This document shows, piece by piece, positions 5,612 through 63,278 of a stretch of DNA of 64,000 nt. The position numbers and the translations under genes are program-made. The first letter of the stretch is position 1, and every line of letters starts with the position of its first letter. Origin of the DNA: Catajapyx aquilonaris (taxonomy: Eukaryota); contig KZ537965.1 in the NCBI GenBank assembly GCA_000934665.2, positions 1 to 64,000 on the forward strand, given 5' to 3'. The notes under the pieces were generated by a model. The model did no database searches and was not told where the DNA came from. It was given only the letters and a program-made list of their open reading frames with translations.

Positions 5612-5686
5612 TACTGACTGAATTTTCTGCTTTTTTACAGGTGAGTTGTGGCTTATATGCTTGGGGTGTGCATCATATAGGTAAGT
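5612..5686 (+). other. Candidate recursive splice site (ratchet point) with 40-nt cryptic exon
   Basis: Branch TACTGAC 5612-5618, AG-free tract ttttctgcttttttaCAG ending 5640, immediately followed by GTGAGT 5641-5646. A second consensus donor TAG|GTAAGT lies at 5681-5686, giving cryptic exon 5641-5680. Confidence 0.75.
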
Positions 5687-7204
5687 GTCGACATGATCCA
5701 AAATTTGAGGACCTTCACACCACCAGCTGTCCGTCCGAAAAAAAAATCGAAAAGAAAAGCCTAAGTTCTTGTCAAAGATCACGTCCTTTGCCTTTTTTTT
5801 CTGGTCCCAAAATTTGGTGTAGGATATGTGGCATTATCAGCCATTAGAGGATAGGCAAAGGCATGAAGGGAAGGGGCTTGAGGGTTCCGCTTTCTCCGGG
5901 GCTTGAAAAACGAATCGGGAAACAAATCTCCGGAGAAAAGGAGGAGGGGGGTTCCTCTTCCCTTAGATTTTTATCCGGGAGTTGGTAGCGAGCCGATGCA
6001 CTTTCCTGACACATTGGGCACGGATTCATTCTCCTTCCCCTCCTCCAAGTCTCCGATGGGAGATAACATCTTAAATCGCTCGGTAAAAGCTTTAAAATGA
6101 AGAGACCCTACTCCTGCTGAAAGAAAAACCGGTTGAATGGAAAGATGCGGCTGGTTTTGTACCTTTGTTGGGTTGAATGAGCTAGCAAGCCAGGATTTTC
6201 TGTGTTCACTATATAGAATGTCAGCACGTTCTACGAATTTTTCTGATATTTTCACTAGTTTTCAGCAGTTCTGTGGGCACTTTTTTTTTGAACCAAAGTT
6301 GAACGCGCATTTCCATTGCAAACATAGAAGGTTTCAGGAAAATCTAGTGCTAGGAGATGCAATTGTTTGTACAGTTAGTGGAATGTAAATGCCCACTTAA
6401 AAACCAAACTGACGATTAGAGTAGCTGAGTGAATAATTCTGCCGGAGTGGGGATAAAGGAGAGGGTAACATGCGTACATGGGGTTTGTTCCTCTACCATC
6501 CATTGGTTTCGAGGCCTGGACTTGTTGGTACAAAGCGTAAGTGTGGAGAGAGGTGGGTGTGCTTTCAACGTTTGAAGCCTTTTTCGCGGGGGGGGGGGGG
6601 GGGNGGGGGGCTCCCAGATTTAGGCCGTGTTTAGTGCCACAAAAAAACGACCATCGAAAAAACATGCAAGGCAGCCCCTTTTTCTCGTACCCTGTGTGGA
6701 TGTTAAGCACGTTAATTAATGTGGCGGGATTAATCCCGTCTTTTTGGAAACGGTTGCTATACTAGTAGCTCGGTTGCTAGGGTCGGCTGGATACATACTT
6801 ATTTTATTATAAGAACAATGTATTTTTTGTGGATAATTTTGTGCATGCCGACATGCCCAATGAGCAAGTAGGTCATACCTGACACGTTTGTTGCGCGCGC
6901 GTACGACTCACGCTGGATCAGCGAGGGCAGGAAATTAAGAGACTGCGGGAGGTCCGTGCATGTTTGTCCTCCTATTTCCCTTCTGATTACTTTCGATTGA
7001 TCGGTCAAGAGTCGGTGCACTTACCCAGCGTGCAACTGACATCCCTCTGTACGTTACGTTTTTTTTTTTTAAAAAAAAGAGCCGCGTTTTTTAAGGCACA
7101 TTTTTTCCCCCCAACAAAATTTTGTCAAGTTGGTAATCTGGTAATTGTTGGGTGCTATTAGATTGGAAGCTGAGCCACGGTTTTGTAATTACTTGGGGGG
7201 GGGG

Positions 7205-7317
7205 NNNNNNNNNNNNNNNNNNNNNNNNNNNNNNNNNNNNNNNNNNNNNNNNNNNNNNNNNNNNNNNNNNNNNNNNNNNNNNNNNNNNNNNNNNNNNNNN
7301 NNNNNNNNNNNNNNNNN
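7205..7317. other. Assembly gap (113 N); smaller N runs at 6604 and 13749-13754
   Basis: N runs, each adjacent to a G or C homopolymer. Confidence 0.99.
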
Positions 7318-10300
7318 GGGGCCCCCCCCCCCCCCCAGCTTTTTGCTCTATTTATTAGTCTGCTGGCGTTTTGCTCGCCATGTTTTTAACTCCGGGACGT
7401 TGCATATGGCAGTCACACTGTTAATACCAAAATGCTATTTCCACCTTGGATTGGCCGGCTAGTTTTCGGAGGGGGGGGGTGTTAAATTGCAAAACGGCAG
7501 CTGTGATTGGACTGTGGAATGACCTGCTGTAAAACGACGTGCGACATACAGGCAGAATATTAACAGGATAGTACTGGAATGAATAATGCAAGTTAAGAAA
7601 CACTCGGTGTACAGTATAGACTTCATGGGGTCTCCCTTTTTTATCGCGTGTTCAACCCTGGCGAAATTGCGGTCCATGCATATAATGCGTGGAAATGCTT
7701 TACATTATTAATAAAACGCGAGTCTGGGAGCGAGGGAACAAGGAGTTAATGGATGCGACACGTATTTGCCGTCGCTCAAGCTTGATGACAGCCTCCGCCA
7801 TTACGTCCCCTCTCCCTATTTTTATACCAACCCTTGTTTACAAAATGGAGGGTCACTTTCATGGGCCTGGAGGATTTTGACGTTATTACTACCCATGCGC
7901 GTCAGCACCGCGCGCGGTTCTTAAATTCGTTTATGTCCTCCAAGCCAGTGCTTTTTTTAATCGTCCCTCTAAAAAGCTAACCACAGGATAGTAGCATCAG
8001 GCAAATTGGAAGTAGATTTTTGCTAATTTTATGCAAAGCGTGTTGGGTTGCAGCGTGCCAGGATGAAACATTGGTCCGAAAAGGCTGACAGCAAGGTGTG
8101 CTTTTTAGTTGTATAGCACACGTTTTAATGGTTGGCTATAACATATAAAGCGTTACAGGAGCGCCGGGAAAACGATCATTTTAAAAGGCAGCCGTAACCG
8201 TGCATTGTGTTGCGCTGCTGCGACCTGTAAGTGGATTCGCACAAAACCGTAAAAGCCAATTCGGTCGTGGTTAACCGTTGCCAGCCTTTCCTCCCAAGAT
8301 GGTCAATTTCACTTCTACTGTGCAATTAGGTTTGCCGCACTAAATGTCATTGCGCACTATAAAATGGGGACGGGTTGGATGGGGGGTGGGGGGTGGAAAA
8401 GCACGTTACATGTTTTACCTTCACTGCTAACTAGACGCGGTTTGAGCCTAAATAAGGATTGATGCCTGAAAATGTAGATACGAGCCGGAGCTTCCTTAAT
8501 TACGTCTAATTGGAATATTCATGTTTATGTAAAAGGCACGAAATAATCGCGCAGTTTGTTGCCGGAGTGTAATGAGAAGGATGACATCTTGTTCCCTGGA
8601 GGCTGGGTTTTGGATAAAGAATAAGGCGCGCTCAAAAGTAGGCGAGTTTGACAGAAACATATTCCTAATTATTCGAGTCGACAAACTCTCAAAAAAAGGT
8701 CAATTATCGTTACATTTTCGAGGCAACTGACGTACGTCAGTACTTTTTGATCCACTTTCTTGTTGAATGAACCTGCAAATTAATGCAGTTTTACAGCCAT
8801 TGTTGACGCCACATTGCTATGTAGGGAGCTTAGAAAATATATGACTCCGGATTTTGGGGGTGCCTTGCAGGCTTTATGTCCGATGTGTTCCTGAACCGGA
8901 TGAAAAGGATGTCAGGAATGTAGTTTGAGCCCCGGGATCAAACGAAAAAAGGCGTGGCAGAGGCGATTTCATTTGCAATAAACGACCCTTGCTGCCTTTC
9001 CAAACATCGCCTGCGCTATTTTCTAATTTCAACCAATCCTAGATGCGACTCTGGACATTGTCACAGTCCAGTGGCAAAGACTGGACACTAATTCGCCCCC
9101 CAAAAACCTGCAGAATTTTATTCTTCACGTGTGTGCAAATATTTGCAAGGTTGCATGCCTCATTATGTGTGGATAATTTAGCTGGGCAAACCTGGTATTG
9201 GATTTTGCGCTATTAAGTGCGGACTGCCCTTTTGTCGCGAATATAGAAGGCGGTACGTTATTGTTGTTGGGGGTGGCTTGCATGCATTTTTGGAAACAGT
9301 GTCCAGTTGGCAGGATTTATTTACGCCGCCCATGGACGTATTATTTGGGCATTGAACGAAAAGCCATTGTGCTGGGAGATTGGGACGAAAAATTTACGGT
9401 ATGCAGCAGCATTGTTTAGAGAAAAAGGGGTGAATTTGCAAGGGCGTAAAAAATGGTATTCGAGGTTCAGCCCTTTTTTTTTTGCAAAAAACAAAAATGG
9501 GGGTGATGTGAAGGGGGGGGGGGTTCTGCAGCTATATAACCCCAACTGTGCCCTTTGTGAGCATTATGAAACTGGCCTGTTTCAGTGTTGAAAGTGCGCT
9601 GCTGGAGTGCAGGCAGACCTGTCAGGAGACTTTGCAGAGTTGAGGGGGCCTGTAGGGAAATTGCTTATTGCGTTCGCAAAAACTGCACAGGCAACGGATT
9701 AATGAATGTATGGAAGTTGCGGTTGCTTGCATGCGAATTTTTTGGGAGGAAAAATTTGTGATGTATTTTCCTCCAGTTATCGCCTGTTTTTTTCTCTCGA
9801 AGTAAAGCACAGTTTTGTCAGAGTGCAAATTTTGTGGCATGATTATGCTACAGCGTTCCCGTTTAATAAAAAGTGAATTTTGCCCAATATTTTTCAATTC
9901 GGGTTTCGAACTGCTTCCATTTCTGAGAGGATGAGCGGAAGAAAACTCTAGGCCTGCAGCCCCCAGCCGTCATCATAACAGGCCTGGATCGTATGTTACC
10001 CAAGATGACGAAGTATCACTTATGAATAAATCACGTGCCCGAGTTGCAACTCGTGCTCGCAAATGAGCATCCTATATCACAGGGACCAAGGGGGGTGTGT
10101 TCCCATGGGAAATCGATGCTTCCGTGAAAGTAAGAAGGTTCGTTAGTCGCCGGTGTGGGGGGTATGCTAGAGCTGGGTGAGTGGGTGGTGGTGGGGTTGG
10201 AAAGAGAGAAGAAGTGTGAGATCCCGGAGGCTCCTTTTGTTGGATGTGATGCAGGTGGAAGCTGCAAACTAAGCCTGATAAAAGGAAGAAGCTCCGGTCC

Positions 10301-10525
10301 CTGCTTCCTTGCTCTGAAAGGAAGGATTGAAATCCGATTGTTAAAGCGAGAGTCTGCTCTTCTTGCCTTTACTTCCACCCCCCCTATAAATACCATTCGT
10401 GCTTTATCATTTTTACTTCGAGAGTTTTTACGGTAAAAAGTACGTACGGAACAATCAGGTGAAATATTCGGCGAGAACACCTTTTTTATGAATCCCATGA
10501 TATATTCGTGAATTCTCATCACTGA

Positions 10526-10558
10526 TCACTGAACACAAGAAGTTCCTGTGTTCAGTGA
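10526..10558. repeat. Short hairpin, 12-bp perfect stem
   Basis: TCACTGAACACA (10526-10537) pairs with TGTGTTCAGTGA (10547-10558) around a 9-nt loop. Confidence 0.8.
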
Positions 10559-13500
10559 CCATGAGCGTCTGAATAATTACAAATCGTCATTACGTTGATG
10601 GGATTGTCGCAATAATTTTGTCACATTTGTGCGAAAACCCATCGCAGGTTCATATTAGCGTGACTAGTAGGCGAATTAGTTACGGGGATAATTATCCAGC
10701 GCAATAGCTCGTTAAATTTGTACCTGAATTTTCTGACCTTCACTCTTTGGCAAGCCCCCAATGAAAATCCCGCAGCAATTACGCATCCGGATTGACTTGA
10801 CTGACAGTTCATCACCGCTTATTGTTCCAGTTCATTGCATTTCTCGCCAGCTCAATAGCTCAATTAAGTTCCAGGAGATGCAGTCAAGTGCAAAGATTGA
10901 GCCATTTGCTTTCCTTGGATGGGGAATGATGATAGCATGGAGGTTGAATCCAGCTTTGCATAAGAGCTGTCGCACCTGCTACTTGGTCCATCTTGCTTTT
11001 GCTTCCTCCGAGGCTGCAGAAATGGCCCACTTGGCCTAGGCACGCATTGATTACACCCCTGTGACGATCTGCGGAATGTGCTTGGGACCTGGGCTTAATT
11101 TCTGCTCGAAACATGGGACCAAGACCTGCTGCTTAGCATTTACTGGGCTCGTCAATGTCTCCCAGTTTGTGTACCAAATGGGCCCCGAGGGAATTCATAT
11201 TTTTTTTTGAGCAGGCCAAAAACAAGGCTAAAATGTCCAACCGGTTTCTGGAAATGGCCTCTCCCGGAAAAAGGGTTGGGGATGAAGAAAATGGGTGATT
11301 TAGTGGGGACAATAAAATGCAATATAAAGTTAATTTAAGGAGGGGTGAGATTTATAGCACACAGGTGCGTTCAAGGCAATACATTTGATTTGACGAATAA
11401 TGCTGCTGCGGCAATTCGCAGCACATAAACTTTCTCCCCTTCCCCCGTGCATGGAAACCCCCGGATATATATACCCCCGGTTGCTTGGTAACTCTGGAAA
11501 ATGGGTGTTGAGAGATGCCTAAAGTTTTCCGATTCTTTTTTCTTTCTCCCGGTGGTCTGCGGATGACCGAAATGGCCCTCTGGATGGAAAAGCACGTGTA
11601 CGGTTAGTTAGCCATGATTTATTTATTGCCCCCCCTTTTTACCTCTACGAGGAAAAAAAAAAAATTACGTAGATCCTCCATCATCTGGCTCTCTGCAGTG
11701 ACCACCTGACGCTTTCTCGGCGGGTGACCTCTGGCTACCCAACCTTGAAAACGGCTTTTTTTTACCTGCTTCCAACATCATCAGCAGCTTGCAGGCGTCT
11801 AAACTATCCTTGCTAAATAGTTGGGATCCGCCCGGAAACTTTGAGCAGTGCTTTAATAACTGTCTGGGAGGGTTGATGGGGGGAAAGCCAGCAGTTCAAT
11901 AGGCCCTTTGGGATCGCATTTTGAGTACAATACAGTGTAAAGCCCAGGAGTTGTAGTACTTCCTTGGAAAACCTTCTGGGTGCGGTGCGCTAGCTCCCAA
12001 CAGATATTGTGCTATTTGCAGAGTGAAACAGGAGTAAATCCTCGTTTGGCCTGTCGATCCCAAAGGGAATGTAAATTGAACCACTCGCACGTGTGGATGG
12101 ATTCGCATGAATGAAAGAGACCCCCGTTGGTTGCGAACCAGCCGAGATGGTCCCTCCGCTCCTAATGTTGACTAAGGTGTAAGAAACGCCGCACCGTACT
12201 GTACAAATGTCTAGGTACATAATGTGAAAAAAATGCACAATATTGAGCTAAACATACCATTTAAAAAATGCTCCATGAGTATGTGACAATATTTTTTGGG
12301 TGCTAACATCATGCCCTCTTGTGTATACTAAAAGGCCAACTACCCTCCCTTTCAATTGTGCACATTATCCGCAGTACAGCGCAACAAATTAAGTAGCATG
12401 TGGGGGTGTGCAGCACTCGCGCAAACACAAAAATCCGGTAGGTATAATTCCATATCGAGTGAGTGACAGTTGATGACCTCATAAAGGGGAAGTAGGTGCC
12501 AAGCTTTTTGCGACCGATGCAAGCGACAAACAGGCTAAAAAACGGGTCCGATTTGTTTGCGGAAGCTATTGTTTTCCATCCTAGTCCTGGAACACCCATG
12601 GAAAATAGCGGTTTTGCTTCCAATTTCATCTCTTCACGCTACCAGGAGCACTGTTATGCGCTTCCCTCCCTGTATCTCTACACGGCAAAAGAGGTTCGTT
12701 GCCTTTGTGTGTGACATTGCAGAGGGTTTTTTTTAACAAAATTTCATGCGCCAATTTTTTTTTTGCAGAATAGTCAGCCTATAGTCAGGGCTATCTGGGC
12801 AAACTTGGGCACGTTGTCAAATGTGGGAGGTTCATTAAATAGAGGATAGTGTGCATCGGAATTCGGCATAGAGAGAGGAGGACCAGGGTGCGGATAATTC
12901 TACGCCACTGATCACGTTTTTACAACCGGATTTTTTTTCCAGCTCGTCCCCCGGAAACCCCTCGCTCTCTCTCATCCTCCGAATATTTGCTCATTGTAAT
13001 CGGCCAAAACTGGACCTGGTGGCGTGTAATAGAGTCATCTCCGTTCAGTTGTAGCCGGGGTTTACACTATTTACTTGCTGGCTACCAGCTGCCAATGATG
13101 AGGGGGGGAAAAACAGGATCCTGTCTTTGTCGGCCTTTTATTTTGATATTGTTGCGAGTACTGCATTGTATACTTGCGGCTGTATTCCTTTTATCTCGTT
13201 CATGTTTGTTGGCATGCCCTTATTTTTGAACCCTTTGTCCACCTTTTTAAAAGCATAAAACAAGAGTTAATTCCACGAGTCAGGTATGCACATCTGGAAG
13301 AGAAGGCTTTTTTTTCATTAGTCCGCATGTTTTGTCCGAGAGAGCATGAATCATGATCGCGTTTTCTTTTCCGGAACCTCCGTACACAATGCAACAGCCC
13401 CAGTATATACAGTAGCATAGAACCCCCCAAAAAAACACCAGGGGGTTGAGCAATTGTTGAACAGTCACTGGGGCCAAAATAACTAACGGCACGTTGTCGA

Positions 13501-15780
13501 TTGCAAATCATGGATGATTTAGTACCTACACGTCCGCACGAGTGTTCGCATCGTAAATTTTGTATACGGCCTCATTTAGCAGTTCAGGTTTTGCAGTTTG
13601 CTTTCCTGACCATTTGGTAGCGCCAGATGAAACCCTTGTCGGTCAAATGTGAGTTTAAATGAGATTGACACATATGCAACAGCTTCATGTGCAGAGTGCA
13701 ACGAACTGAAATTAAGCATACTAAAACTGCTGAACATCCTTGGGGGGGNNNNNNGCACATGAGTATCCAATCAAATCAGGTGATAATGGAAGGTCACTCG
13801 AGTGAAATTACACAAAAAAATATATATAGTCTGAAGGGACGTATAGGGGTAGAAAGTATTCTATTGATTTCCCAGTAAAAGGCTAAGTAATTAGGAAATT
13901 AAGTAAATGCATTTGCAGGCTTGATCCTGGGAATTCATGGATAGGTGAGGCTATCTCAATCTTGCGGCGGCCACTATCACAGCCGATTCCCATCCTCGTC
14001 GCGCCGTGTACCTCGTCTACATGTTAATCGGCCCTGGCCTTATCTTAATTGGACATGCCCGATGCCCTAATATTTCCAAACCTAAATAGGCAAAGGGGAT
14101 CATCAAAACAGTCCAATTAAGGTAACAGGGTCCGGGTAAAAACCCCTGGAAATGTGAGGGGGGGGGGACCTATACCAATAAAAATCGACGAGGCAGGCTT
14201 TCAACCGAAATGAAGCGGTTCTGGCCAAGATTTTGGAGGGAAATGCGCCTGGGAGAAAAGAGGCAAAGTCGCACAAGTAAGGAAATAGAGGAAAAAAAAA
14301 TCAAGCGAGGAAAACGACACCCATGAGTCCGCATCTCAAGTGGCGGTTGCGGAGGGCCAACTTTTGGCCAAAATGCAGGCGGGGATAGCAGGTATAGGCA
14401 AACTGGAGAGACACAGCAGCAGCGGTCCAAAACGGAGCAAAAGGTCCTCTGACAAAAGTTTTGTTGGGTGTCGGCCAAACGACCCTTTTTCCACCCCCAG
14501 GCCTCCTGTGTACATGGCTCTTAGCAGCAGCCACTGCCATTCTATCAGACCCACTCCAAGAAAAAAGTTTTTCACCAAAACCTCTGCATATAGCCCAGGG
14601 ATCGTGAGAGGGGGGATGTCAAGACACGTGGCGAGGAATGACCTGTTGAAAGGTCACTTCTAGTGAGACATTATGTCGTGCGTTGGGTGCTTTCATGTGA
14701 CAAATGCGGAGGGGGTTGGAGAAGTGCGGTTATGTCACAATGTCAGCTACATCTGTTGGAGTTTTTGGACCTTTTTGTGTGATAAAGTATGCAGTACAAA
14801 TCTGGTAGTACAGTAGGAAATACATTGTGCAATGGTCGTAACCTTTATGGATAATAATTGTTTTAAACTTGTATTATCTGCATGTGAAACATTACACAAA
14901 ATACCAGAATAAAAACGGGAGGGAAGTTTCTGGTTTCGACTGTATGTTTAAAAATGGGTTTTTTTTTATTGCTGTTGGAAAACTGGACATAATGCAAATT
15001 TTACTGTGGCATTTACACCACTGCAACTTACACATTGCAAATGCGGCTCTTTGGACTTGTCACATACTATGACGTACAGTATACTATACTATCTTCATTA
15101 GCTTCATTTGCATTTGAAATTTGAGCAGTAAACGTCCAGCAATTTTTTCCAGCTTTTTCTATACGAGCATGACTCTACTGGAAAATTAATTACGATGTTA
15201 AATCATTACGAAATACTGTCCACCCTTACAAGGCGCGAGTCATTTTTCAGTGGGTCAAGTGCCCTAATACACTGCATGGATGACGGCAGACAAATCGTTT
15301 GGCTCCCAAGTGATCGAAAGCTTAAATCGAATCAGGGGAAACGAATTTGACGGCCCGGGTCGGGAAAACCTCGGACTGCACTCCAGATAAGTCGAATTGA
15401 ATTGTACTCGAGAAATCATTGTCGATGCTGGACTTCTCGAAGGAGGGGGGAAAAAAGGAAGGAAAATGCAAGTCTTTCCGTAATGATCCCTTTGGGTCCC
15501 TTGTAGTCCGTCATTGCATAGTCTTGAATGATCCCGACATCATCATTAGCTGAGCTGGAGGCTGGTGGCGGTGTTCTATCCGAAACGGGGGCCATTTTTC
15601 GCCCAAAGCAAGCCGCACCTATCTCACAGAAGCTAATGGTCACTTCCCTTTTCCTTCTCTTTGCCGCCTTGGCTGCGATAGCGCCCATCGATCTCCTCAC
15701 CCAAGAAAATCGAGCCATTCCTCTTTTCTTCTCTTCCCTCTGACTTTGGCCTCCCTCACGAAAAAAAAGCCGGAAGTCCT

Positions 15781-25900: not shown

Positions 25901-28900
25901 GATAATTACTATGTTTTTTTTGTGCGACTTTAGAGTCACTTTTTTTTAAAGGACGAAATGTGTTTGGCCGAAAATGGCGATACCAGCACGTGCTCAGGGG
26001 GTGAGGCTGCGTTACGAATCCCTATGATATAAATGGGGTTGAAATATTATGATGATCTGCGGAGTAAAGCCTGGGGGACCTTCACGGCATGCCTCGCCTG
26101 CCTCTTTATGGTTATTGATGTAGTCTTAACTAGCGCGTTATGAAGAAGAGGCACAGTTCGCATGCACTAGGCGTTTTACTTTCTCCATCTCCCCTCCCGG
26201 CCACGCCATCTTCTAACCCCAGAAGCTAGCTTTAGTCAGTGGATGAATTGCCGGCGCAGTAAGGAGCGGGTTATGCCTGGCAAGTTGTGGAAACTTTTTA
26301 GTCTGCTGAATTACCTTGCACTTTGTCATTAGCCTGGGCGTGGCTTTACTCTCTCTCTGAGAGTCAGGGCACAATGCGATGTTCCGAGGGGAGGCCCTTC
26401 CAAAAACGACGGTCCTTGCGCCACTAGGAAAAGAAAATTAAGGTTACGTGCAAATTTCATTTCAGCAATTTCCCTTAGGGAGCACGAGCAGTGACTTGAG
26501 TTATTGGGAAATCTGCCTCTTTTATGAAATATTCATCTCCGAGTTGCACGTACTTGACAAAGCAAGTGGAAAGGAAGAGGGAATGCTGCGAGGACTTAAA
26601 GGGAATTTACAAAGGCAAACATCTCCGGGGATTTTGGGGGGAGGCTTTTAAAAGTCACTGTTATATTCCCATCTAATCGAAAGAGCCAGGGCTGAAATGA
26701 CATATTCTGCGCATGAGTTATTCTTCAGAAAAAAAAGAAGAAGACGAAGAGAAAAAAAAACTCCATGCTTCCAATCCGACCCCCCAATTTCTCTAAAGCA
26801 ACTTTTTTTTCCTTCCAGCGTCTTTTCGCATCGCTCGTGATTGAGGCCTAACGAATTATGGAGATGTATTGAATTCGCCAAGAAAGTTTCGCTCTGAGTA
26901 GGGTGCATTTTCAGCTATTTTATTACTTCCGACGTTCAATCGCGAGGTGGATAAGCTTTCAGTTGGCAGAATTTAGGGCTAGCCCCAAAGCCATAGCACC
27001 CCAAACTTTTTTTCCCCTACTCTCAGCAGGTGCGCATAGTCATGCAACATTTCCTGAAAAGTACTAGATGAAGTTATTGTCTTCAGAAACGAATACCAAT
27101 GAATAGAATTCTGGCCCCGTACAGTGTCTACAACCTCAAGTACAAGCTGGCATACCATGCAGTAAACAAGATTAGTTCCAGAACATCTTTTTTTTGAACC
27201 GCCTATATCTGTCACGGTTTCATCGCGAGGACAGCTGACTTGATCCCGGAAGAAGTCACAATACGAGGAGGAAAAAGCCTTTGCGCTCAGCATCATTGGA
27301 ACCTATTGACCCTTTCATTACAAGGCAGCCTTTTCACTCTCGTCTGAAGCGACGGGAGTCCTCTCTCCTCGGGTATAAGAAGCGTGCCGAATTGTTTCCT
27401 ACCGGGTTCCAAAAAGGCGACTCCGGGAATAGGAAAAGCGACAGAAAAGGCTTCGTCGTCTTCTAACCGAACGCACATACTAAAAAGGAAGCGAGTCTGT
27501 CGCAAGAAAATTAAAGCGTCTCGTAGAAACCCCCCTTTTCATAATTCGGCACCTCGAACCTGAGCTCTGGAATCTAATATCGGAGATGGTATTGACACTG
27601 GGGAAAAAAAGATGAAAAACAGGATGAATAGTAAAAATCCGTAAGAAAAATGGCAACGTCGCAACCACATAGCTGTGACTCTGTAAAGAACTGCTACTTG
27701 TAGCGGATAGACCGACGGAACTTAACAAAAAGATCAGTGCTACTAGAGAATTTCCTGGTTACATGAATTTTTTCCGTTTTTTCTCTCCCGTTGCTTCTAT
27801 AGCCCCTTTGCCATGGGGGTTCAGATAGGCAACCGAGCACAATGCTATCGGCGTCCGACCGCGATTGACTTGCCGGCTCTGCTGGAGGTACGTGGCCTCA
27901 GGAGAGGGGTGAATAATAGCAAGGGAGAGGAGGGGAAGGGAGGAAGTGAAAAGGCAAATGGGATTTCGACAAGCCTGGTCTTAAGCTGTTTGGGGGGGAA
28001 GGTTGCGGCAACTCTGGTTTGCACCAAGATTGCGATCAGGGAGAAGGTGTGGTTTTGTTGCCTTGTTGCGAACCTCACTTATATATACGTATGTGTAGAG
28101 GCGTGACAAGACCCGCCATGTTGGGGAACAATGGAATATTTTGCCAGACAGGTTGCGATGAAATATTAAGCAATGTTTATGGGATGTTGCATATGTGAGC
28201 CGTGCATACATTATGCATCGGTTGCCTTCGATCTGCGGCGAGGCTTTAAATCAATCGATTGGAGGATTATGCAGTGTGGTGCACAGACTGTTGTCTCTTT
28301 GCGGTATGGTCTAATCCTCCAGACTCACAAAAATGCTGGGAGCCAATTCCATTTCGTTTGGTCTCGAACGTCTCATAGAGAGGGGAAAAGGGAGGGGTAT
28401 CAGAGCAGGCGGAGATAAAGACGCAAGTTATTTGTAATGATGATTGGGAGGGTGGTTGGATGCCAATAATAGTAGGGAGTGAGGAGATTATGGGGAGGGT
28501 TTGGTCCTGGAGAGGGGGGGAAATGGAAGAAGGGAGAGTTGGAATGAGCAGAGAAGACGAAAAAAATGTCTTGTGCTTGCATCCGCCACCAGGGTGTTGT
28601 CAAGGGAACGTGACATAATTTTCTAACCCTCGATCATTCCATCATCGAAAGGCTCAGCACCTTTTTGCCTCACCCTGTACGTTGGGTACGGCCGGAGCAA
28701 AAACTTCAGCTTGAAGACGCAATTAATTAATCTGGTGGAAATAATCCTCATCAGGAGACGCCAGGAGTTAACGTTCGAAAGTGCTGGCTTTTTGCCTTGT
28801 TAGCAAACTTTCTTGTATGTATATTTTTTGTAAACATTTGCTGACTTGTTTAATTCTCCAAGTATCCATTAGTAGTGAGAAGCTGGGAGAGAGTGGTTAT

Positions 28901-31366: not shown

Positions 31367-31710
31367 ACGTAGACGCTACATTGACATTACATAGACGTTT
31401 CTTAAGCGTTGACGTTACATTAGATGTTTCTTAAACGTTGACGTTACGTAGACGTTATACTTAAACGCAGGCGTTACACAGACGTTACGCAGAAGGCACT
31501 TAAACGTAGACGTTACATAGACATTACACAGACGTTACGTAGAAGGCACTTAAACGTAGACGTTACATAGACATTACACAGACGTTACGTAGAAGGTACT
31601 TAAACCTAGACGTTACATAGACATTACATAGACGTTACACAGACGTTACGTAGAATGCACTTACACGTAGACGTTATGTAGAAGGTTCTTAAACGAGACG
31701 TTACATAGAC
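31367..31710. repeat. Minisatellite of 11-bp units (AGACGTTACAT-like) with a 50-bp higher-order period
   Basis: TAAACGTAGACGTTACATAGACATTACACAGACGTTACGTAGAAGGCACT recurs at 31501 and 31551, and as a variant at 31601. Both ends are degenerate. Confidence 0.92.
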
Positions 31711-31818
31711 GATATATAGACAACAACATCAGTTTATTTATTTTGTACCCCGTTTTTAGTATAGGTCTACACAAGATTAGGCTTATTTTTAAATTTTCGT
31801 TTTTTTCCCCCCTGGCAG

Positions 31819-32160
31819 ATGTGACGGCCGTGCCATTGGAGACGGTGTTCACGGAGGCCGGCGCGAATGTGACCATCAGCTGTCCCGGCGTGACGGAGCA
31901 CTCTCTGGTCCTGATGCTGGAGTGGCGATGTCGGGGATGCTCGCAAGGCAACACGGCCATCGGAGGAGGCCAGGAGATCAAGCTGGTGGAATACCGGAGC
32001 GAGAGCACCACCGTCTGGCAGAACAGGCATCGGATGACCCTCATGCCGGACACATACGCCCTTTACTTCCATCCCGTCATCGCAGGGGACAGTGGAGAGT
32101 ACAGCTGTCTGGTCAACAACAGGCCCAGACCGGAGTCGCTGGTCAAGCTCGTCGTGCAAG
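31819..32160 (+). CDS. Internal coding exon encoding one immunoglobulin V-set-like domain of a cell-surface receptor/adhesion protein ([D]VTAVPLETVFTEAGANVTISCPGVTEHSLVLMLEWRCRGC...FHPVIAGDSGEYSCLVNNRPRPESLVKLVVQ)
   Basis: Ig hallmarks are present: B-strand Cys (VTISC), C-strand Trp (LEW), F-strand D-x-G-x-Y-x-C (DSGEYSC), terminal LVV strand and an N-glycosylation sequon NVT. The acceptor is ttttcgtttttttcccccctggcag (AG 31817-31818) and the donor is CAAG|gtaaaa (GT 32161-32162). The exon is 342 nt and phase 1 at both ends, as is typical of Ig-domain exons, and is markedly GC-richer than its flanks. Confidence 0.93.
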
Positions 32161-34858
32161 GTAAAAAATAATAATAATTTGTGCACAAAAATTGATTAAA
32201 GTCTGACACCCTGGGTGTGTGTATATCATTGTGGATGGGGAAATATTGGGTGGGTGAGAGCAGCTGGGGCTCTCGGTGCGCATTCAGAGCAGCACGTCTG
32301 ATTAGGCTCCTGTTTGGCATGAAACACAGTTTGCAGCTTCGGCACAGGAAATTAGTGCCGCTGCACTCGGCTCTACTAGACGCTGCGTTTGTGTAGGCGT
32401 CTGACTTAACACTAGTGGCCATGTAGGACAAAAGGCCAGGTCGTAACCCACACACAAAAGCCACTTTTTAAGTAAAAGCCTGGATAACTAAGTTACTACG
32501 TTCAATTTGTCTTAATGATAGCGGCCGATATTTTTAGCATGCATTTATGTAGATGGGTTAATTCACTTGGCCTGCTTGTAGGGAACTCTTACCCCTTTTT
32601 CTTTCTGCCCCAAAATACATTGCAAGTTAATGCACTGTGCTTCTAGTTATTAAATTATTTATGCCTGTTTGCCGCTTTAATTAAAAAGGGAAGAACGCTG
32701 CAGCCAAGAGAGGGTTCAAGAATTTTCATTCTGTCGAACCACGGAGCCCACGAGGCAACTTCAATTTTTCGCGCGTTTAATTAAACGGGGTTCAAGTTGA
32801 AGAAATTTGCCAAAAACGGACGTGATGTATATCCCTGTACTCGAAAATGTTTTGAGTAAATTTTAACTAATGAAATTCGTCAAAATTTGCATACTATTTG
32901 AGTCTCCGTCTAACTTGTGGTTAAAATGTCTGCACCTATAGCCATTAATTATCCCCTGGCGGGCTTTAAAAATCTTCATAGCCATGCAGGAAGCCCGTTT
33001 CCGTTATATTTTTAATTACGCCTGTGCGTGCCAGGTTGCCCGAATGTTGGTCTGGATGTGATGGGACAGTCTACAAACAGGTGGAGATGTCCGGTAGTCA
33101 CGGACGGAGGAAATGCTAATGATCTGCACATGCCGGGGTGTGTCACTGACCTGAAGTGTCATACGGGTCGTCGACCCATACACACTGGTAACACATATTC
33201 GGGATTCCACACTCGCGTGTTTTGTACTATTGATAAGGCAAGAGTCTCCCTCCGAAAATAATTGGGCGCTTCCAATTTAAAGTTTTCCCTTAGCTTTGTT
33301 GCGTGCGGTTGTCCAGGAATCACATTGTGTCCGGAGTGCCATTCGAGACGTCCAGGATTTGTTTACAGCGGAGGAGTACTGGGCAAAGGAGCTTCGGCCA
33401 ACCCCAGTCATTTGGTTGTCCCGGCAACTATTATCATCCGTCGGCCACCTTATAATTAGGGTCCCTTAATTAGAGGGCGCTTTAGGTGTAGCGCAAGGAG
33501 ACCTGGCTGCTGCATTTTTATTATTTACGATTGCAAAATGGGTGTGCCCAACATGCGTGACACCTTACGCAACACCGGATATGAATTAGTTTTGCCAGCA
33601 ATTGTATGTACATTCCGTAATATTCCACACATACACATTACATGCGATCTGTCAGTAGCCTATTTCTAAGGTAATTTATTAGGGACTAATGTATAGTTAG
33701 GTTGGCCTATTAATATCATTGCCCATTTGAGAGCGGAAACATTGTCTCGCGAGGATCTAATCTGGTTCACGCGAGCCTCCGAAAGGCAGCAATGAACGCA
33801 AAATGGTTCTTAGAAGGTGGGGTCCAACTCAATCGGCCAGAACCGCCTGCTTTTGAATGACACGAGTCATTATGCTTGGAAGATCCATCGCTTAATTGGC
33901 CCACCTGTTATTTTTCGGGTGCTGCTCCATGTCGGTTCCTCTTTCCCATTACGTATTAACCTAGAAGCGCCCCCCGCTTGCTGGAGAGGCATGAATTGTG
34001 CATTGCAGAGTCTCTGTTTTGGTTAGGTTGGGCAGGAAATTGATCTACATGAAAATTGCATGGTAATTGACTTTGTAACACAAACAGGCGGTGTTTCAGG
34101 GCGGGGGTGGGACGGACAGGGGGAGTGTTGGTTTAGCCGGCGTTCAAATTCCTACAAATGCAAAACAACGTAAACTGCGGTGATGTGGTTCGAAAACGGA
34201 AGCGTGGCTTCCGCATTCGAAATTGAGATATTGCGCCGCATACCCGTCATGTAGGAGTTTGGCGCTTGAAACTTCCATTACCAGCCAGCACTCGGCCAAA
34301 GTAATGAGCCCCGTGCGGTTAGCCCAGTCAGGAAGTACACTTGGTCAAATAAACGCCAACACTCCCTCTGAACGATTTCACTCTGGGACTAGGGGACTCG
34401 CAAAAAAAACAAAAATTGGCATGCATGGACCCATAACTTATGCACTGGAGCCGTGGGTTGGAAACAATCGCAAAAGTACACCCTATTCAGATTCCTTCGC
34501 AAAATCATAAGTGCCTTCCAACCAGCTTTGTGATAAACACATTAAAAAGGTGGTGTCGGCTCCTAAGCAATTGGAAGCGATAATACCAGTGCAAAGGCTG
34601 GCAACTTGAGGTGTTAAAGTAGAAGAATAATTAAGTCATCTCAGGGCTGCGAGCGAGGCCCGCGCGAAAAGGAGGAGTTAATCAGCACCTTTCGCCGGTT
34701 ATAAAAATGTGCCGAGCTATAATCATGTCTTGGGTTCGCAGTTTTATAACGTTACGAGCTCGGGCGATGGTGGTCTCCGTTATTTTTATTCGGCAATCAA
34801 AACGGAGGATCTAGACGAAGGAAAAAGGCTGACCCGCATTCTTTAGCATGACCACGTG

Positions 34859-40525: not shown

Positions 40526-40955
40526 TTGTACTGACTCCAACTTGTACCGACTCTCAACTTGTACTGACTTCAACATGTACCGATTACAACTTGTACTGAC
40601 TGTTGTACTGAGTCAAACTTGTACTGACTGTTGTACTGAGTCAAACTTGTACTGAGTCAAACTTGTACTGACTGTTGTACTGAGTCAAACTTGTACTGAG
40701 TCAAACTTGTACTGAGTCAAACTTGTACTGAGTCAAACTTGTACTGAGTCAAACTTGTACTGAGTGTTGTACTGACTGTTGTACTGACTGTTGTCCTGAC
40801 TGTTGTACTGAGTCAAACTTGTACTGACTGTTGTACTGAGTCAAACTTGTACTGACTGTTGTACTGAGTCAAACTTGTACTGACTGTTGTACTGAGTCAA
40901 ACTTGTACTGACTGTTGTACTGAGTCAAACTTGTACTGACTGTTGTACTGACTCA
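40526..40955. repeat. Two-unit minisatellite (16-bp TTGTACTGAGTCAAAC and 12-bp TTGTACTGACTG)
   Basis: 13 copies of the 16-mer and 12 of the 12-mer (two variant) are interspersed from 40591, preceded by four degenerate 16-17-mers at 40526-40590. Confidence 0.95.
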
Positions 40956-44781: not shown

Positions 44782-44929
44782 ACAGTTTCCCCGGGAACCC
44801 AACAGAGGAGTTGTTTACACCCCCATTGCGCATGAGTAGAACGCGGGCCAATGGGGAGGTGGCGGTAACAATATTGGCGGACCAATCAGAGGGCTCGGCC
44901 AACTCCCGCAAGAATTTTAATATTATAGA
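44782..44929 (-). mobile_element. Short dispersed repeat, non-autonomous Helitron-like (copy 2, inverted relative to copy 1)
   Basis: The minus strand reads A|TCTATAATATTAAAATTCTTG...TCTGATTGGTCCGCCAATATTGTTACCG...TGCGCAATGGGG...CCTCTGTTGG...GGAAACTG, homologous to 3387-3527. Confidence 0.55.
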
Positions 44930-44940
44930 TAAGTGCAGTT

Positions 44941-53430: not shown

Positions 53431-53667
53431 TTGAAACTTTACAAGTACGGGCCAAGAATGTGAGATTCTACCGTGTGCAACTTGGATGTGAGTAGTTTCA
53501 CATTCTTGACCTGTACTTGTAAAAAAAAGTGTTCTGCCTGCATACAATGTACACTACAATAGCGTACAACCAGAACAGAATTGGTTGAAACTTTCTTATT
53601 ACAAGTAGACTACAGGTCAAGAATGTGAAACTACTCACATCCAAGTTGCGCATTGTAGAACCTCACA
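53431..53667. repeat. Nested inverted repeat (fold-back) with a 39-bp perfect stem
   Basis: 53477-53515 is the exact reverse complement of 53611-53649. The arms extend imperfectly to 53459-53520 and 53601-53667. 53441-53463 is also an imperfect inverted copy of 53498-53520. Confidence 0.9.
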
Positions 53668-56600: not shown

Positions 56601-59600
56601 TCTTCCTCTGCTGTACCACATACAAGGGACAGAGCAATTCATGACCGCTTTACGGCCTTGCACCTTGTTCTCAGCATTTTTTTCTTTCTTCCGGAGCTTC
56701 TTTTTTGGTAGAATGGAGGACACGATGCGGGTAATCGTGAAAGATTGCGACGGCAAGCCAAGCCTTGGTAGGTCGTCATTTTGAGTGGGTGAAAACAGCA
56801 GTGCCAAAAGCCTCCGATCCACAAGCTTCGCAGTTTTGCTGCTTTTCCACCCACCCCCAACACAACCCCCTCTCCCTTTCCCAGCTTTTTGGGCCTTTCC
56901 ATGCTTGTGGCTTCATAACGCCTCGCCATAAAACACCGTTGTTGGAACCATTGTCTGCACTTTATCTCGCCAGGTTTCAAATCGTAATGTGACTTGTCTG
57001 TAAATTTATATCCCTGAGTGTTTAGTGGGCCGTGTGTGCTGCAGCTATCAACGCCAGTGGTGATAAAGCTTCGGGTTTCGTTTCGCCTCCGGGATACTTA
57101 TGCCTCGGGTTCACACACCGACATACCCGCTGCACTTGCCTTCTCTTTGTGGTTTGTCATCTTCCGCAATATTTTTTTTGGTGTGCACCGAGGATGAGAG
57201 GCCATGAAGGCGGAAATGACGTAGCTCTTTAAAATAAACACGGAACACTTGCTTTGAAACTTATGCCAAGATGTACACTCACGTAAGAAAAATTAGCTTA
57301 GAACCATAAATATTGCTCTCAAAATAATTTTTTAAATTTCATAACGCTCACATAAGAAAACATGCAGATTCATCCACCAAGCCCAAGCAACAACAGGGCT
57401 TCTAACCGAATAGTTGTGTTTTATCACACACATTATCCATTAAGGGACCGTGTGCGTCGCATGATTTCGCAGCTGAAAGAATGTACCAAGGAATGTCCTA
57501 TATAGACCAAACTCTCAGCAGAGGCCTCGAGGTTCCCTCAATTTTCCGGATTAGGCGACCCTCGTGCATATTCAAGAGGGTGTGGCGCAAAAATGCAGAT
57601 ACTGATTATATCCGCCCCCGAGTATGCTGCCCTTACAACACTGCTGGGGACGATTTATGGGGGTTGCAAAAGTCCGCAACATTCGTGCAGGCCTCGAAAA
57701 ATAAAGTAAAACTGTGGCCATTTACTATATGTAGACTCTTTAGTCAGGAAATGTCTTTAAGTAGATTTTGAGTGGGGTTTGGGCATGTTTCATAAGCTTA
57801 AACTTGCGAGAGATGGTAGTGTGTGTTGGAGATTACGCACCGTGATTTAGTCAAACGATCATATTGAATTAGGTATTCCAGGCACGAAAGGGGGGGGTTG
57901 TTGAAGAGAGGAAGGGGGGATTGAGGGCTACTGCCTAATTATGATTACAATTTGAGAGGATTAGTTGGATGTTGAGCCGCAGAGGTAGACGTCATCATCC
58001 GTCTTGGGAAATGGGCCGCAGAAGTATCCTTATACGACGGCACGTGTGGCCCTTTATCAGCCAGATATATATTACTGCAGGTAAATTTACAAAAAAAAAT
58101 GAAAAGTGAAATTCCAGGCTCTGGATGTTTTGCACCAATTTCGTACCGGCACCCATTTGTTTCCTGTTGATACGAAGCTGATTTTGCAAAACTAAGACTA
58201 ACAATTTTGCAATTTCCGACTGCTCTCACGCTAGTCTAATTCATATATAGGGTAAGCCCATAATTTCCAAGTGTACTTACTCTTTGCATGTTGCTACCCA
58301 CGAGCCGCAATTTTTTTTTCCGACCACAGTCAGACATTTGTCACTTTTGTATCCTATGGTGTGACCCGGCCGTAAGCGATTTAGCGCATTATTTGCCTAT
58401 TTCTGTCACATTTCGCATGACAGGCTAAGCGAGGGGGTCTCCTCCCGATACTTGTAAACATGATTGACACAATAAATAACGAATTATCGCGTGGAACCCG
58501 CGCATTTTTATGCCTGTCAGCACATGAAGAAATCATCAGTGACAACCATAAACATCGGAGCGAATTACAAAGCCCCCAACCAGTTTTTTCGCAGATTCAA
58601 CGATTAGGAAACAGTGGGCTAGTCTAATGCAAAGCATCACGCGGGAGGACTTTATGGGCCAACAGACCATCTAGTTAGCATTGCGTGAAACGTAAAGAAT
58701 TCTAATAATAGGTTGCAACGGCAGCGTTTCTCATTAGACTGCAATCCGATCCTATCTGAAAGAATGGAGGTCTTGAAGGTGGGCTGCCTTCGATAAAAAA
58801 AATTTGAAGATAAAAAAGTAGTGTTATAAGGGGGGGGGGTGTGATTAAGTCTTTCGTGGCCTTTTTGAAGGCTATTGATCTTTTAGAGTAGCTGCTGCAT
58901 CCAGCTAGGGCTGCCACCGCCTCAAAATGTGCTCCCAAAGTCACCCACAGGAATAGACTTTCTCTCTCCTCCAACCCGAGCGACTAATGGTTATAATTAC
59001 GCCTCCATAAGCCCCGGTTAATGCAACTTTTGTTTTCCTCACCCGAGATTGCACCAGCTCGACCTGCATGGATTTTTAGACAAAACCGCGTATGCGCACT
59101 TTCCAGTACTGGCTGTTCAGATTATTATTAAACATTTGGTCCACACACTGCATATTTTACTTCAAAAAATGTTTTTTTTTTCTATCAGAGTGAAAAGGGC
59201 ACGTAGACCATTGCAGAACAAGGTGTATCTGCCGTTTGTTTTCCTCGCCCTGCAGTTTGCCATCTCGCGAGGGCAGTTCTAGCCTGCTATTTTTTCGTTC
59301 GTACTTCTGACTTCTCTAGGCTCTGCCTTTTAAAAAAAAGAGGTCGCGACAGGAAAAGGTCTGAAGAATACTGAATAGGCAAGTGGCGCGGCTTTGCAGC
59401 TGCGGCCCATAAGGCTGGAGAAGGAGAGAATATGTTTGGGGCTGTCAGGGAATGTCGAGGAACACCTTGTGCGAAAAACGGAAGAAAAGGTCCGCTCTTT
59501 CTTTTTTGATCCAGTAAGGATGTTGGCAGCTTCTCTCGGTTGTAAACACACAAGGTCGGTGCAGTAATTCACGTTTCTTGACAGATGCTTGCGACCCATG

Positions 59601-61542
59601 CGTTGTATCGAGGAGTTGTACGGGGGCGATGCCTCGAGGGTGCTGGAAAAGGGGTCTGGAATTTGAGGAAGCAAACTTCATCCAAAAAGAGCCTGGAGGA
59701 CTGAGGATGACTTCATCAGGGAAGGAAAAGGGGAAGGGAAAGGGATCGATGACTGCGTGTGAACGACCCAAGTCTGGCTGCATTTATCGAGTTTATGGAA
59801 ACGAAGCTCTCTCTCTCTCTCGCCCCTTGCAAGGCGGCTCACCCTTGCCAGTACACTGGAGATAAGTAATTGCCACAGCACATGCAAGCTGGTCTCGAGC
59901 CCAGATTGATGGACACCTGGCGTGAATTGGCCTAGAATTATTTTACGAGTCATTTAGTGCCCTTCTTGGTTGTTACGGAAGCGTCCCACCAGAGGTCTCT
60001 GATGTAACAGCCAGAGAGCGATCTGACCTCTGGTGAGACGCTCACACACTCCTGATGCTGCACCATTTTGTAAATATTGTAGGATTCCGGGGAATTCTAG
60101 AGAATAAGACGCTATCTTGGTTCTAATTAATAATCCAGTACAAACTTCCATAAAGAGTCAGTGAGGTAATCCAATTATCGCGGTCCCAAAACGGCATGGT
60201 CGCATTGGGGGTACAGTCGGATCGGATTAGCTAATCACCATGCGCCCCTGTGAATCTTGGCTGCTGAAGCGAAATGCCAATAACACTTGCAACCAGCAGT
60301 TTTATGCCAGCAGGACCCGGTTTTCGAAGAGCCAAAAAAGGGGTTTGAAAGGACAACGCTGGTATTTTTTGGGGGGATGGTATCATTTAAAACTGCAGGG
60401 TCTGGCTGTGACAGAAGAACGGATTATCCCCGTACTCCTGATTAGGGTATCGATTAAGCTCTTTTGTGTTGCGAATTCAAAAACTGCTAACCTGCGCTAA
60501 GGAAACACAAGCCCGCATCTGCTCTGAAAGCACACACAAAAAAATGGCGGAAAAAAGAAATGAGTTGGCGAGTGGGCCTGTAAAGCATGTGGATCTTCTC
60601 CTGTTCGTGACAGTATGGCTCTTGGCAAGTTGGGAAGCGAGCAGCAAGAGGTCCTCAACCATTTGGAAATCAGGGCATGTTTCCTCCAGGCCCCTACTCG
60701 GAAGCTTCGCAACGGCAACCAAGGGCGCAAGAGAAAAAACTTTTTAATTTTGGGAGGAATGTTGCGCGCTAAGCGGCCGGAAATTACCGCGGGAGGTACC
60801 GCTGTTCTATTATATATTTTTTTCTCGCAAAATTTCGGGGCGTGTGTGCAGACTACCCCTCGAGCTTAAAGATTGGGGCAGGTGTTGCTCCCTTGTTGAA
60901 AGGTCAAAGGGTGTCCCAGCAGGGGCAATATTTCAGCAAGGTATTTACCAGAAAATGGGTGGTCCTCGCAGTATCGCGTCAAACTACGGCGCCGTCTGGC
61001 AGGACCATGATTTAGTGACCACGCCTGGCTGACAAATCATGTGGTGCATGGACCACGCTTTTCCAGATGTGACGATAACCGATATTGGGTTTCACCACCT
61101 CATGCCGCCCAATGGATGTATCCGGCTGATATAATTAGTTATCAAGATTGAGGGTCGCCTATCAACCAGCTCATATTTAGCAGGGTGTTTTAATAATTGT
61201 GCATGTGGATCGTGTGTTTTTGGGGGGGGAAAGAAAGTCTTGTGCAGGGTTTATGACCGCTTTCCGGGCGAATTAGAACTACTAAAGTTCTCAGAAGAAA
61301 GCATGAAAGACCATAAACTATGCAAAGGGTTTTCGCGTTCTATTCGGAAACGGCCGCCTTAGTTAATACAAAGTTGTTTTTAGAGGCCCTTTTATCATCC
61401 GAGCAAGTGCCCTGAAGAATCGTAAAAAGCCGACGTCTTGGACCCCGTTTCTTGACCTCCCGAAAAAGATGCGGTGTTTCAAATTGGCCACGAAAAGAGC
61501 ACGTGGATTATCCTCGGGAAGCCTACTAAAAATTAAAATTTT

Positions 61543-61769
61543 TACCCAAGTAACTGCTACCGATCACTGCTACTCTTTGAACAGCAGTCTCTGTAGTCAA
61601 AAATCGCCGTCGCTCTATACCCAAGTAACTGCTACCGATCACTGCTACGTTGCGAACAGCAGTCTCTGTAGGCAAAAATCGCCGTCGCTCTATACCCAAG
61701 TAACTGCTACCGATCACTGCTACTTTTTGAACAGCAGTCTCTGTAGTCAAAAATCGCCGTCGCTCTATA
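61543..61769. repeat. 75-bp tandem repeat, 3 copies
   Basis: The unit TACCCAAGTAACTGCTACCGATCACTGCTAC[5 variable nt]GAACAGCAGTCTCTGTAG(T/G)CAAAAATCGCCGTCGCTCTA starts at 61543, 61618 and 61693. Confidence 0.95.
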
Positions 61770-63202
61770 TCCACACCGTCATTTCGGTTAGAAATAACAG
61801 GTTGTCTATCAGTCTCGTCTTTCCTGTTCCGGGCAGAGTTTCTCGCTTGCTTAGGTTTCCTAAAGCAGTTTCTCGGGAAGGTGGAAAGAAACAGATCCCT
61901 AATGAGGCTGCATCTAACGGCAGATCGGTTTCCGCCTCCGTCCTCGTCTTTCTGTTGTGCAGAAGCTTTCGCAAGCCAGTTCAGCCCCAGGCCGCCCCCG
62001 CCTCCTCCTTTTGCAAGCTGTCACTCGAGAAAGAAGGTTTCCTTTAGTTCAAACTAATTAGGAAACCCCCTACCAGAATAACACTGGCTGGTTATGAAAC
62101 TGCTATCACGGTTGTTGTGAGAAAGTGTATTGCTAGGGGAGTGGTCGCGTTGATATTACTGCAGCTGTTGGGATTCTGATGGTGCTGGGGAGTAGGAATA
62201 TGGGGAGTAAGATACACACGGCAATGTTTAGAGTTCCAACTCTCTCTGAAGCAGTGAATCAGTTTCAGGGAATTCCAAGTCCCATCTGCTATATTCCATT
62301 TTTTTATCCATTTCCGACCGTCGCTGAGTCGCGCCATGGCTTGGGAATTACTTCTCTTCAATCGACCATTCATTAGCCCACTTTCAAACTTTTGATGACA
62401 GTGAATCCTATTATCCTGCAGAGTTTTCGCAAATGGAGCTCGGCGGGGTTGGGAGAGAGAGAGGGAGCGAGAAAAATATGTAGAAAGAAGGAAAAAGGGT
62501 TTTGGGGGGCCGAGCGAGATGCTGATACCGAAAGTAAAAGACTTAATTATGGTTCCTTAATTCGATGCGGATCCGGAGCTGAACAGTGGTCGCTTTTTGC
62601 AAATGGTGCCCCCGTGTTGTTTTTTCCCCCATGGCTATTTCTGAAACTTTGCGTGCCTGCTGAGCTTGCGAAAAAGAATGACAAGTTTTATAGCCGCACT
62701 CCTACGGTGTTTGTTAAGCGTATTGCCCCTGTGGACGTGTAGCACGCAGATCAGCACAAAAAGAGTGGGGCCAACAGCCATGAAATCAATGGATGACTTT
62801 ATTATGCGGGGAGGAGGAAGAGTGGGGGACCATTTACGTTGTGATGATTTAAAATTGGGAGGGTGTGTGTTGGGTGTATATTACGGGGTGTAAATTAAGA
62901 CTTCGAATGGTGTCATTGGTGCTTGAAGGTCGTCCAGTGCAGTGGTTGACATGGATGGCTTCATTATTCTGCCTCTGATTTATAATTTAAATAACATAAA
63001 ACCCATTGCCCTGTACTGTATGAGTTAATGTCAGTAGATATCACAAAAATTAATTAATTCATGCCTCGCAAGCCCTAGCGTGTAGAGTTAAACCACACTT
63101 CATACTAATGATATACAGCATTGTGTGCGGTTGTGTGAAATGCAGCCATACGCTGCATGCTAATGAACTGTGTGTACTGTATGGTGCCTGTAATAACCAT
63201 GT

Positions 63203-63278
63203 TACTAACGTTTATTTATCTTTCTCCGCAGGTAAGCAGTGTGCAACCTTTCTCATTCGCCCAACCATCACAGTAAGT
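63203..63278 (+). other. Candidate recursive splice site (ratchet point) with 41-nt cryptic exon
   Basis: Perfect branch TACTAAC 63203-63209, AG-free tract tttatttatctttctccgCAG ending 63231, immediately followed by GTAAGC 63232-63237. A second donor CA|GTAAGT lies at 63273-63278, giving cryptic exon 63232-63272. Confidence 0.78.

Follow-up and report, generated by a model that had tools for sequence, protein, structure and literature searches.

The stretch of Catajapyx aquilonaris DNA analyzed here (positions 1 to 64,000 of the forward strand of contig KZ537965.1, assembly GCA_000934665.2; hereinafter “the window”, 64 kb in length) carries on its plus strand a single coding exon, encoding an N-terminal immunoglobulin (Ig) domain, and two elaborate splice-signal composites, one situated far upstream (site 1) and the other far downstream (site 2) of that exon. 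Our assessment, held with moderate confidence, is that both composites are Drosophila-type intronic recursive splice sites, i.e., ratchet points, each accompanied by a short cryptic recursive-splicing exon (RS-exon), in an orthologue of the receptor tyrosine phosphatase gene Ptp99A, with site 2 being the more secure of the two. As things presently stand, this is a well-founded prediction, made from the sequence, of a mechanism that has already been described elsewhere.

A ratchet point, as portrayed for Drosophila, is a tandem of an acceptor and a donor inside a long intron, which follows the consensus (Y)nNCAG/GTRAGT (slashes within sequences mark the splice junctions) and is recognized via a short (~50 nucleotide (nt)) cryptic RS-exon that is generally out of frame and has a downstream donor of its own; the ratchet donor usually outcompetes the donor of the RS-exon, so that the latter is always skipped (PMC8605326). 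Mapped Drosophila branch points are given at positions -36 to -21, and TT is found at -5/-6 in 196 of the 197 Drosophila ratchet points, a rule that is known for Drosophila alone (Duff preprint, 10.1101/006163). The acceptor–donor motif of a ratchet point is, in addition, ultraconserved among related species, and mutation of the ratchet donor in flies reportedly brings about inclusion of the RS-exon, as in Bx and kuz. In the tandem of acceptor and donor, the short cryptic exon with its downstream donor and the predicted branch position, both sites within the window agree point by point with this published anatomy of ratchet points and their cryptic RS-exons (PMC8605326; 10.1101/006163).

At site 1, a TACTGAC branch-point motif (5612–5618, predicted branch A at 5617, i.e., at position -24 from the junction) is followed by an AG-free pyrimidine tract that ends in the acceptor CAG (5619–5640, with the CAG at 5638–5640, a pyrimidine fraction of 0.76 for the tract and TT at -5/-6). 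This CAG, the first AG past the branch A, is fused directly to a ratchet donor, GTGAGT (5641–5646), which opens a putative cryptic RS-exon of 40 nt (5641–5680) closed by the downstream donor TAG/GTAAGT (5681–5686). The arrangement at site 2 is the same: the branch-point motif TACTAAC (63203–63209, predicted branch A at 63208), an AG-free pyrimidine tract with the acceptor CAG (63210–63231, with the CAG at 63229–63231, a pyrimidine fraction of 0.81 and CC at -5/-6), a ratchet donor, GTAAGC (63232–63237), opening a putative cryptic RS-exon of 41 nt (63232–63272), and the downstream donor ACA/GTAAGT (63273–63278). All of these elements are on the plus strand. The distance from the branch A to the acceptor G is 23 nt in both cases (5617/5640 and 63208/63231), which puts the predicted branch A at -24, inside the range of the mapped Drosophila branch points, and neither of the two intervals is a multiple of three, nor does either keep the frame of the junctions found in the orthologues.

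This geometry (the identical spacing, the AG-free tracts, the CAG fused to GTRAG and the GTAAGT 40 or 41 nt downstream) had been claimed in a first-pass annotation of the window, and re-reading of the window found every coordinate given there for both composites to be correct to the base. Its siting of the composites about 26 kb before and about 31 kb after the sole coding exon, on the same strand, was equally accurate, as site 1 lies 26,179 nt upstream of the Ig exon and site 2 lies 31,071 nt downstream of it. The assembly just downstream of site 1 is of a draft nature, with runs of N at 6604, 7205–7317 and 13749–13754 (120 in all).

We conclude that sites 1 and 2 are selected splice-signal composites and not accidents. 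The core motif YAGGTRAG is encountered five times on the plus strand of the window (5640, 5680, 13944, 15815 and 63231) and twice on the minus strand, with both of the minus-strand copies having neither a TACTRAC heptamer nor a good pyrimidine tract. TACTRAC itself is found 17 times on the plus strand, 13 of these in one tandem array at 40.5–40.95 kb, and seven times on the minus strand; outside the array, just four plus-strand copies exist, two of which are those of sites 1 and 2. With the rate of TACTRAC taken from the window itself (1.9e-4 per position), the probability of at least two of the five plus-strand cores having this heptamer within the 28 upstream positions is approximately 2.7e-4 (an analytic estimate), and that for two of the seven cores on both strands is 5.7e-4. 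A second line of evidence comes from scoring all of the AGGT sites on both strands (n = 381) by how many pyrimidines occupy -20 to -5, whether -3 is a pyrimidine, whether the tract is free of AG and how well the donor matches GTRAGT, a score that is blind to both the branch motif and the second donor. Sites 1 and 2 ranked first and second (scores of 25 and 24, next best 21); both have a TACTRAC motif, which only one of the remaining 379 sites has, and both have a GTRAGT 25–100 nt downstream, as do eight of the remaining 379.

The scan of all AGGT sites in the window revealed no comparable composite on the minus strand, and this ranking, together with the motif counts, upholds what the first-pass annotation had noted by eye, namely, that no equally complete composite exists there; its rough estimate that the composites exceed chance expectation is likewise supported by ranks 1 and 2 of 381 and by the probability of ~2.7e-4. 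A repeat origin of sites 1 and 2 was considered and rejected, as no within-window high-scoring segment pair overlaps either of them. A search of the window against Rfam gave zero matches, and none of 14 long open reading frames (ORFs) had a Pfam match at the curated cut-off, which counts against the presence of a nested gene, or of a transposon protein, at either site. The tandem array mentioned above (40526–40955, plus strand), which contributes 13 of the 17 sense-strand branch-site-like heptamers, is composed of ~28-nt units (TTGTACTGACTG TTGTACTGAGTCAAAC), lies 8.4 kb past the Ig exon, inside the downstream intron, and may be a plain minisatellite.

The host gene is, judging by its sequence, a Ptp99A-type receptor tyrosine phosphatase orthologue. 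Its Ig exon (31819–32160, plus strand, phase 1 at both ends, with the acceptor ...CTGGCAG/ and the donor GTGCAAG/GTAAAA) is translated in phase 1 into a 113-residue Ig domain, which scores 21.3 bits against the Pfam ig model, just short of the 21.8-bit cut-off, and is 64% identical over 100% of the exon to a protein of the termite Cryptotermes secundus designated “tyrosine-protein phosphatase 99A”. The best match, at 65% identity, is a fragment from the mayfly Ephemera danica, than which no closer homologue was found in the database searched; the identity to the stick insect sequence is 57%, and that to the sawfly ones (Ptp99A) is 54–55%. Taken together with an insertion shared with the mayfly (see below), these matches point to an arthropod gene, most likely that of an early-branching or hemimetabolous insect or other hexapod. 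When five orthologues were compared with the window using tblastn, the Ig exon was the sole match (E of 5e-41 to 6e-27), every other match in the window having an E of at least 0.14. The next exon (FN3, reached in the orthologues at ...VVQ/DVPDPPGRP) is therefore placed beyond position 64000, the phosphatase and FN3 exons are outside the window, and site 2, with only the Ig exon having been found, therefore falls within a sense-strand intron longer than 31.8 kb. In the orthologues, an upstream signal-peptide exon ends with ...GRVF plus one base, and the junctions that flank the Ig part are F/DVT and VVQ/DVPDPP; they read ...VVQ/DVPDPP straight through at the junction where site 2 is located, and inclusion of the 41-nt interval would therefore shift the frame.

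The own donor of the Ig exon, GTAAAA (32161–32166), is weak (U1 duplex of -6.8 kcal/mol), and GTAAGA or GTAAGG occupies this junction in all six of the related metagenome loci. These six loci (29,218 nt in total, extending at most 10 kb from the exon) share no nucleotide similarity with the window outside the Ig exon, and the only ratchet-like composite that they contain is the donor of the Ig exon itself, the loci being too short for distances of 26–31 kb.

A precedent for recursive splicing exists in this very gene. For D. melanogaster Ptp99A, which is listed under the identifier FBgn0004369 (for the correspondence, see PMC3172300), supplementary file 1 of Pai 2018 (PMC6110457) gives two recursive sites in two long introns, one at 3R:25272647 in a 40.4-kb intron, detected by its saw-tooth pattern and flagged in_duff=1 and high_confidence=1, and the other at 25236466 in a 33.6-kb intron, which is of low confidence. 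The same source reports a high-confidence recursive site in 63% of the fly introns exceeding 40 kb. The literature search produced no paper with both “recursive splicing” and Ptp99A in its main text, the gene being present by its FlyBase identifier in the supplement.

What such sites would do in the Catajapyx gene can be laid out step by step, with every RNA step at both sites being something that we infer from the sequence. The perfect U2-complementary branch site, the pyrimidine tract, the CAG and the U1 site 40–41 nt further on would define a short cryptic exon deep in the intron, to which the upstream exon would be spliced (for site 2, this would join 32160 to 63232). Such joining would set the end of the exon directly before GTRAG and rebuild a 5' splice site, and the rebuilt donor would be preferred over the downstream one, with the 40- or 41-nt piece leaving together with the next intron segment and never appearing in the mRNA. 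In this manner, the intron downstream of the Ig exon (>31.8 kb) would be removed in at least two steps, as would the upstream intron if it contains site 1. The first recursive step at 63232 would also swap the weak donor of the Ig exon for a stronger one. The modeled donor energies of site 2 fit donor competition and skipping of the RS-exon, since the U1 duplex of the regenerated donor (exon end plus GTAAGC...) amounts to -9.5 kcal/mol, as opposed to -6.7 kcal/mol for the downstream donor.

The likeness to the Drosophila ratchet points, then, extends to the juxtaposed (Y)nNCAG/GTRAG(T/C) at both sites, their placement within a neuronal or developmental gene, in one of its very long introns (site 2, and site 1 if it is intronic), the short cryptic exon, out of frame and ending at a second donor, and the predicted branch point within -36 to -21 at both sites, the TT at -5/-6 at site 1, the superiority of the ratchet donor over the cryptic-exon donor at site 2, and the host, which is an orthologue of the listed recursive host Ptp99A. 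There are differences as well: the intervals are 40 and 41 nt long, compared with “about 50 nt” in flies, the segments are 26–31 kb or longer, and a perfect TACTRAC at an identical spacing is present at both sites, which is not described as a ratchet feature in the Drosophila accounts compared. Furthermore, unlike the Drosophila ratchet points, the sites in the window are predicted ones.

Several observations weigh against recursive splicing at one or the other of the two sites. The downstream donor of site 1 forms the most stable U1 duplex among the 3687 GT sites on the plus strand of the window (-12.4 kcal/mol), whereas the regenerated donor reaches -9.2 to -12.2 kcal/mol, varying with the upstream exon end; unlike in flies, the downstream donor is thus not the weaker one, and the competition rule therefore predicts, in this model, some inclusion of the 40-nt exon and not a clean zero-length splicing, an outcome that we find plausible. 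The 40-nt interval is, moreover, open in the reading frame of the Ig exon. A scan of positions 1–31818 for the upstream signal-peptide exon gave 17 candidates, none of which resembles the orthologues, so that site 1 can only be presumed intronic; the signal-peptide exon probably lies before the start of the window. Site 2, for its part, has CC in place of the TT that is seen at -5/-6 in nearly all of the fly sites. A further reservation is that the ratchet-site ratio reported for the locust genome is vertebrate-like and not insect-like (PMC3896762), so that the enrichment is not universal among large-genome insects. The use of either site, finally, is a prediction from sequence. The recursive-splicing interpretation put forward in the first-pass annotation thus stands in part, in that the composites are real, non-random, oriented like the one gene that the window contains and matched to the fly anatomy, whereas the use of both sites and, given that no signal-peptide exon was found in the window, the placement of site 1 inside the transcription unit are presumed.

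Among the competing explanations, the one that fares best, unlikely as we consider it to be, takes both short intervals (40 and 41 nt) to be conventional cassette exons subject to alternative splicing (either frame-shifting poison exons leading to nonsense-mediated decay or isoform-specific ones), for which the downstream GTAAGT would be the donor in use and the GTRAG at their starts would never act as such. Complete exon-definition signals are indeed present at both intervals, no donor in the window pairs better with U1 than the downstream one of site 1, and lengths that are not multiples of three would suit poison exons, which are a known exception to the frame-preserving nature of cassettes (PMC8605326). 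An exon would, however, start with GTRAG by chance in only ~1 of 512 cases, and both intervals do so; the regenerated donor of site 2 beats the own donor of the exon, a situation that leads to skipping in the Drosophila account (PMC8605326), and full-length orthologues have no insertion between their Ig and FN3 parts.

A still less probable alternative, which pertains to site 1 only, would have 5641–5680 be a constitutive coding exon that specifies the last residues of the signal peptide (VSCGLYAWGVHHI, followed by the D of DVT...) and follows an ATG exon ending in phase 0, with the GTGAGT either being coincidental or making it an “expressed RS-exon”. The interval does offer 13 codons open in the Ig frame, with the terminal G completing the conserved Asp codon; “AWG” plus four residues plus DVT resembles the termite “AYG” plus GRVF plus DVT; both the acceptor and the downstream donor are very strong, and the window has no other convincing signal-peptide exon. 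Yet a right-anchored comparison under BLOSUM62 gives no significant resemblance to the N-termini of four orthologues, with 21% of the 72,112 random open 13-mers of the window scoring as high, the conserved G(G)RVF/GGLY motif of the orthologues is absent, an additional, so far unseen, upstream coding exon would be demanded, and a GTRAGT start would come about by chance in ~1 of 2000 cases.

The idea that at both sites splice-like motifs came to adjoin one another by chance, in intronic DNA rich in T, and have no function, which could draw on the pattern having been specified after the sequence was viewed and on a single window having been analyzed, is very improbable in light of the probability of ~2.7e-4 arising from the branch motif alone and of four independent signal elements meeting at both of the top AGGT sites with the same spacing and on the sense strand only.

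A short ORF that is signal-peptide-like and unlike the orthologous N-termini was noted 2.9 kb upstream of the Ig exon (MYIFCKHLLTCLILQVSIS, 28817–28874, plus strand, followed by A/GTGAGA in phase 1). Were this ORF to be the true start of the coding sequence, site 1 would fall in an intron of the 5' untranslated region or outside the gene.

Returning to the ratchet-point interpretation, the mechanism has already been published, as has its occurrence outside Drosophila, and the sites described here are a probable further case of it. The suggestion of the first-pass annotation that this might be a lineage where recursive splicing is undocumented is, therefore, weak, since an excess of ratchet sites on the sense strand of long introns is on record for four non-drosophilid invertebrates (mosquito, bee, beetle and sea urchin; PMC2773006), and a site has been published for the locust (PMC8892266). 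Table 2 of Shepard et al. 2009 (PMC2773006) gives the density of ratchet-type sites in long introns (per 100 kb) on the sense strand versus its complement as 2.20 versus 0.10 for fruit fly, 1.03 versus 0 for mosquito, 0.81 versus 0.10 for beetle, 0.48 versus 0.12 for (honey) bee and 0.54 versus 0.07 for sea urchin, with vertebrates having a ratio of ~1. The window, with two ratchet-like composites in the sense orientation and none in antisense, shares the sense-strand excess of combined acceptor–donor sites with that survey; the survey offers genome-wide statistics without individual sites or RS-exon anatomy, whereas a single locus is dealt with here.

In the locust gene, one recursive site was predicted and partly tested (PMC8892266), and a lungfish preprint tests recursive splicing in a giant genome (10.1101/2024.12.11.627982). 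The recursive-splicing literature since 2016, as represented by titles and abstracts among the matches listed, includes no non-drosophilid insect besides the locust. Vertebrate RS-exons, which are also covered by Blazquez 2018 (PMC6224609), frequently appear in annotations or in mature transcripts and are subject to control by the exon junction complex, in contrast to the sites in the window, which have an arthropod host gene and fly-like motifs. What the two would have in common is exon definition followed by competition of the regenerated 5' splice site with that of the RS-exon. This is the order of events that Sibley and co-workers reportedly put forward for vertebrate RS-exons in 2015, with the exon being defined first and its own and regenerated 5' splice sites competing afterwards.

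If true, the proposed reading would show that recursive splicing of the fly type, cryptic RS-exons included, also takes place in an insect that is not a drosophilid and is probably hemimetabolous and, on top of that, affects the very gene that hosts it in Drosophila, which bears on the age and the gene-specificity of this manner of giant-intron removal and could show which of the sequence rules (the TT at -5/-6, a consensus branch site) hold only within a given lineage. One might tentatively go further and suppose that Ptp99A was already a recursive host in early insects, and that the RS-exon architecture, in which a strong acceptor and a regenerated donor are followed ~40 nt downstream by a second donor, is equally old, with the ratchet acceptors in the present lineage being marked by a perfect TACTRAC at a fixed 23 nt and not by the fly TT(-6/-5) rule, a scenario that we regard as possible yet rather doubtful. 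There is also a practical side to it for the annotation of large arthropod genomes, where such sites would point to cryptic exons that shift the frame and ought to be left out by gene finders.

A few other features of the window deserve to be put on record. Within the Ig domain, an insertion (CRGCSQGNTAIGGG, 31930–31975, residues ~37–51) is shared, among 14 aligned homologues, with Ephemera danica alone, the part common to the window and the mayfly being CRGCS[QE]G..., and in two of the metagenome relatives (L004 and L006), an intron of 1.5–2.8 kb splits the Ig domain at about the place of this insertion. A tandem repeat of TAGACGTTACA-type units with periods of 11, 28 and 50 (31367–31714, plus strand) ends ~100 nt before the acceptor of the Ig exon. 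Elsewhere, a palindromic (self-complementary) element of ~209 nt is located at 53459–53667, and an inverted pair of 112 nt, whose copies are 73% identical, is found at 3387–3492 and 44821–44929.

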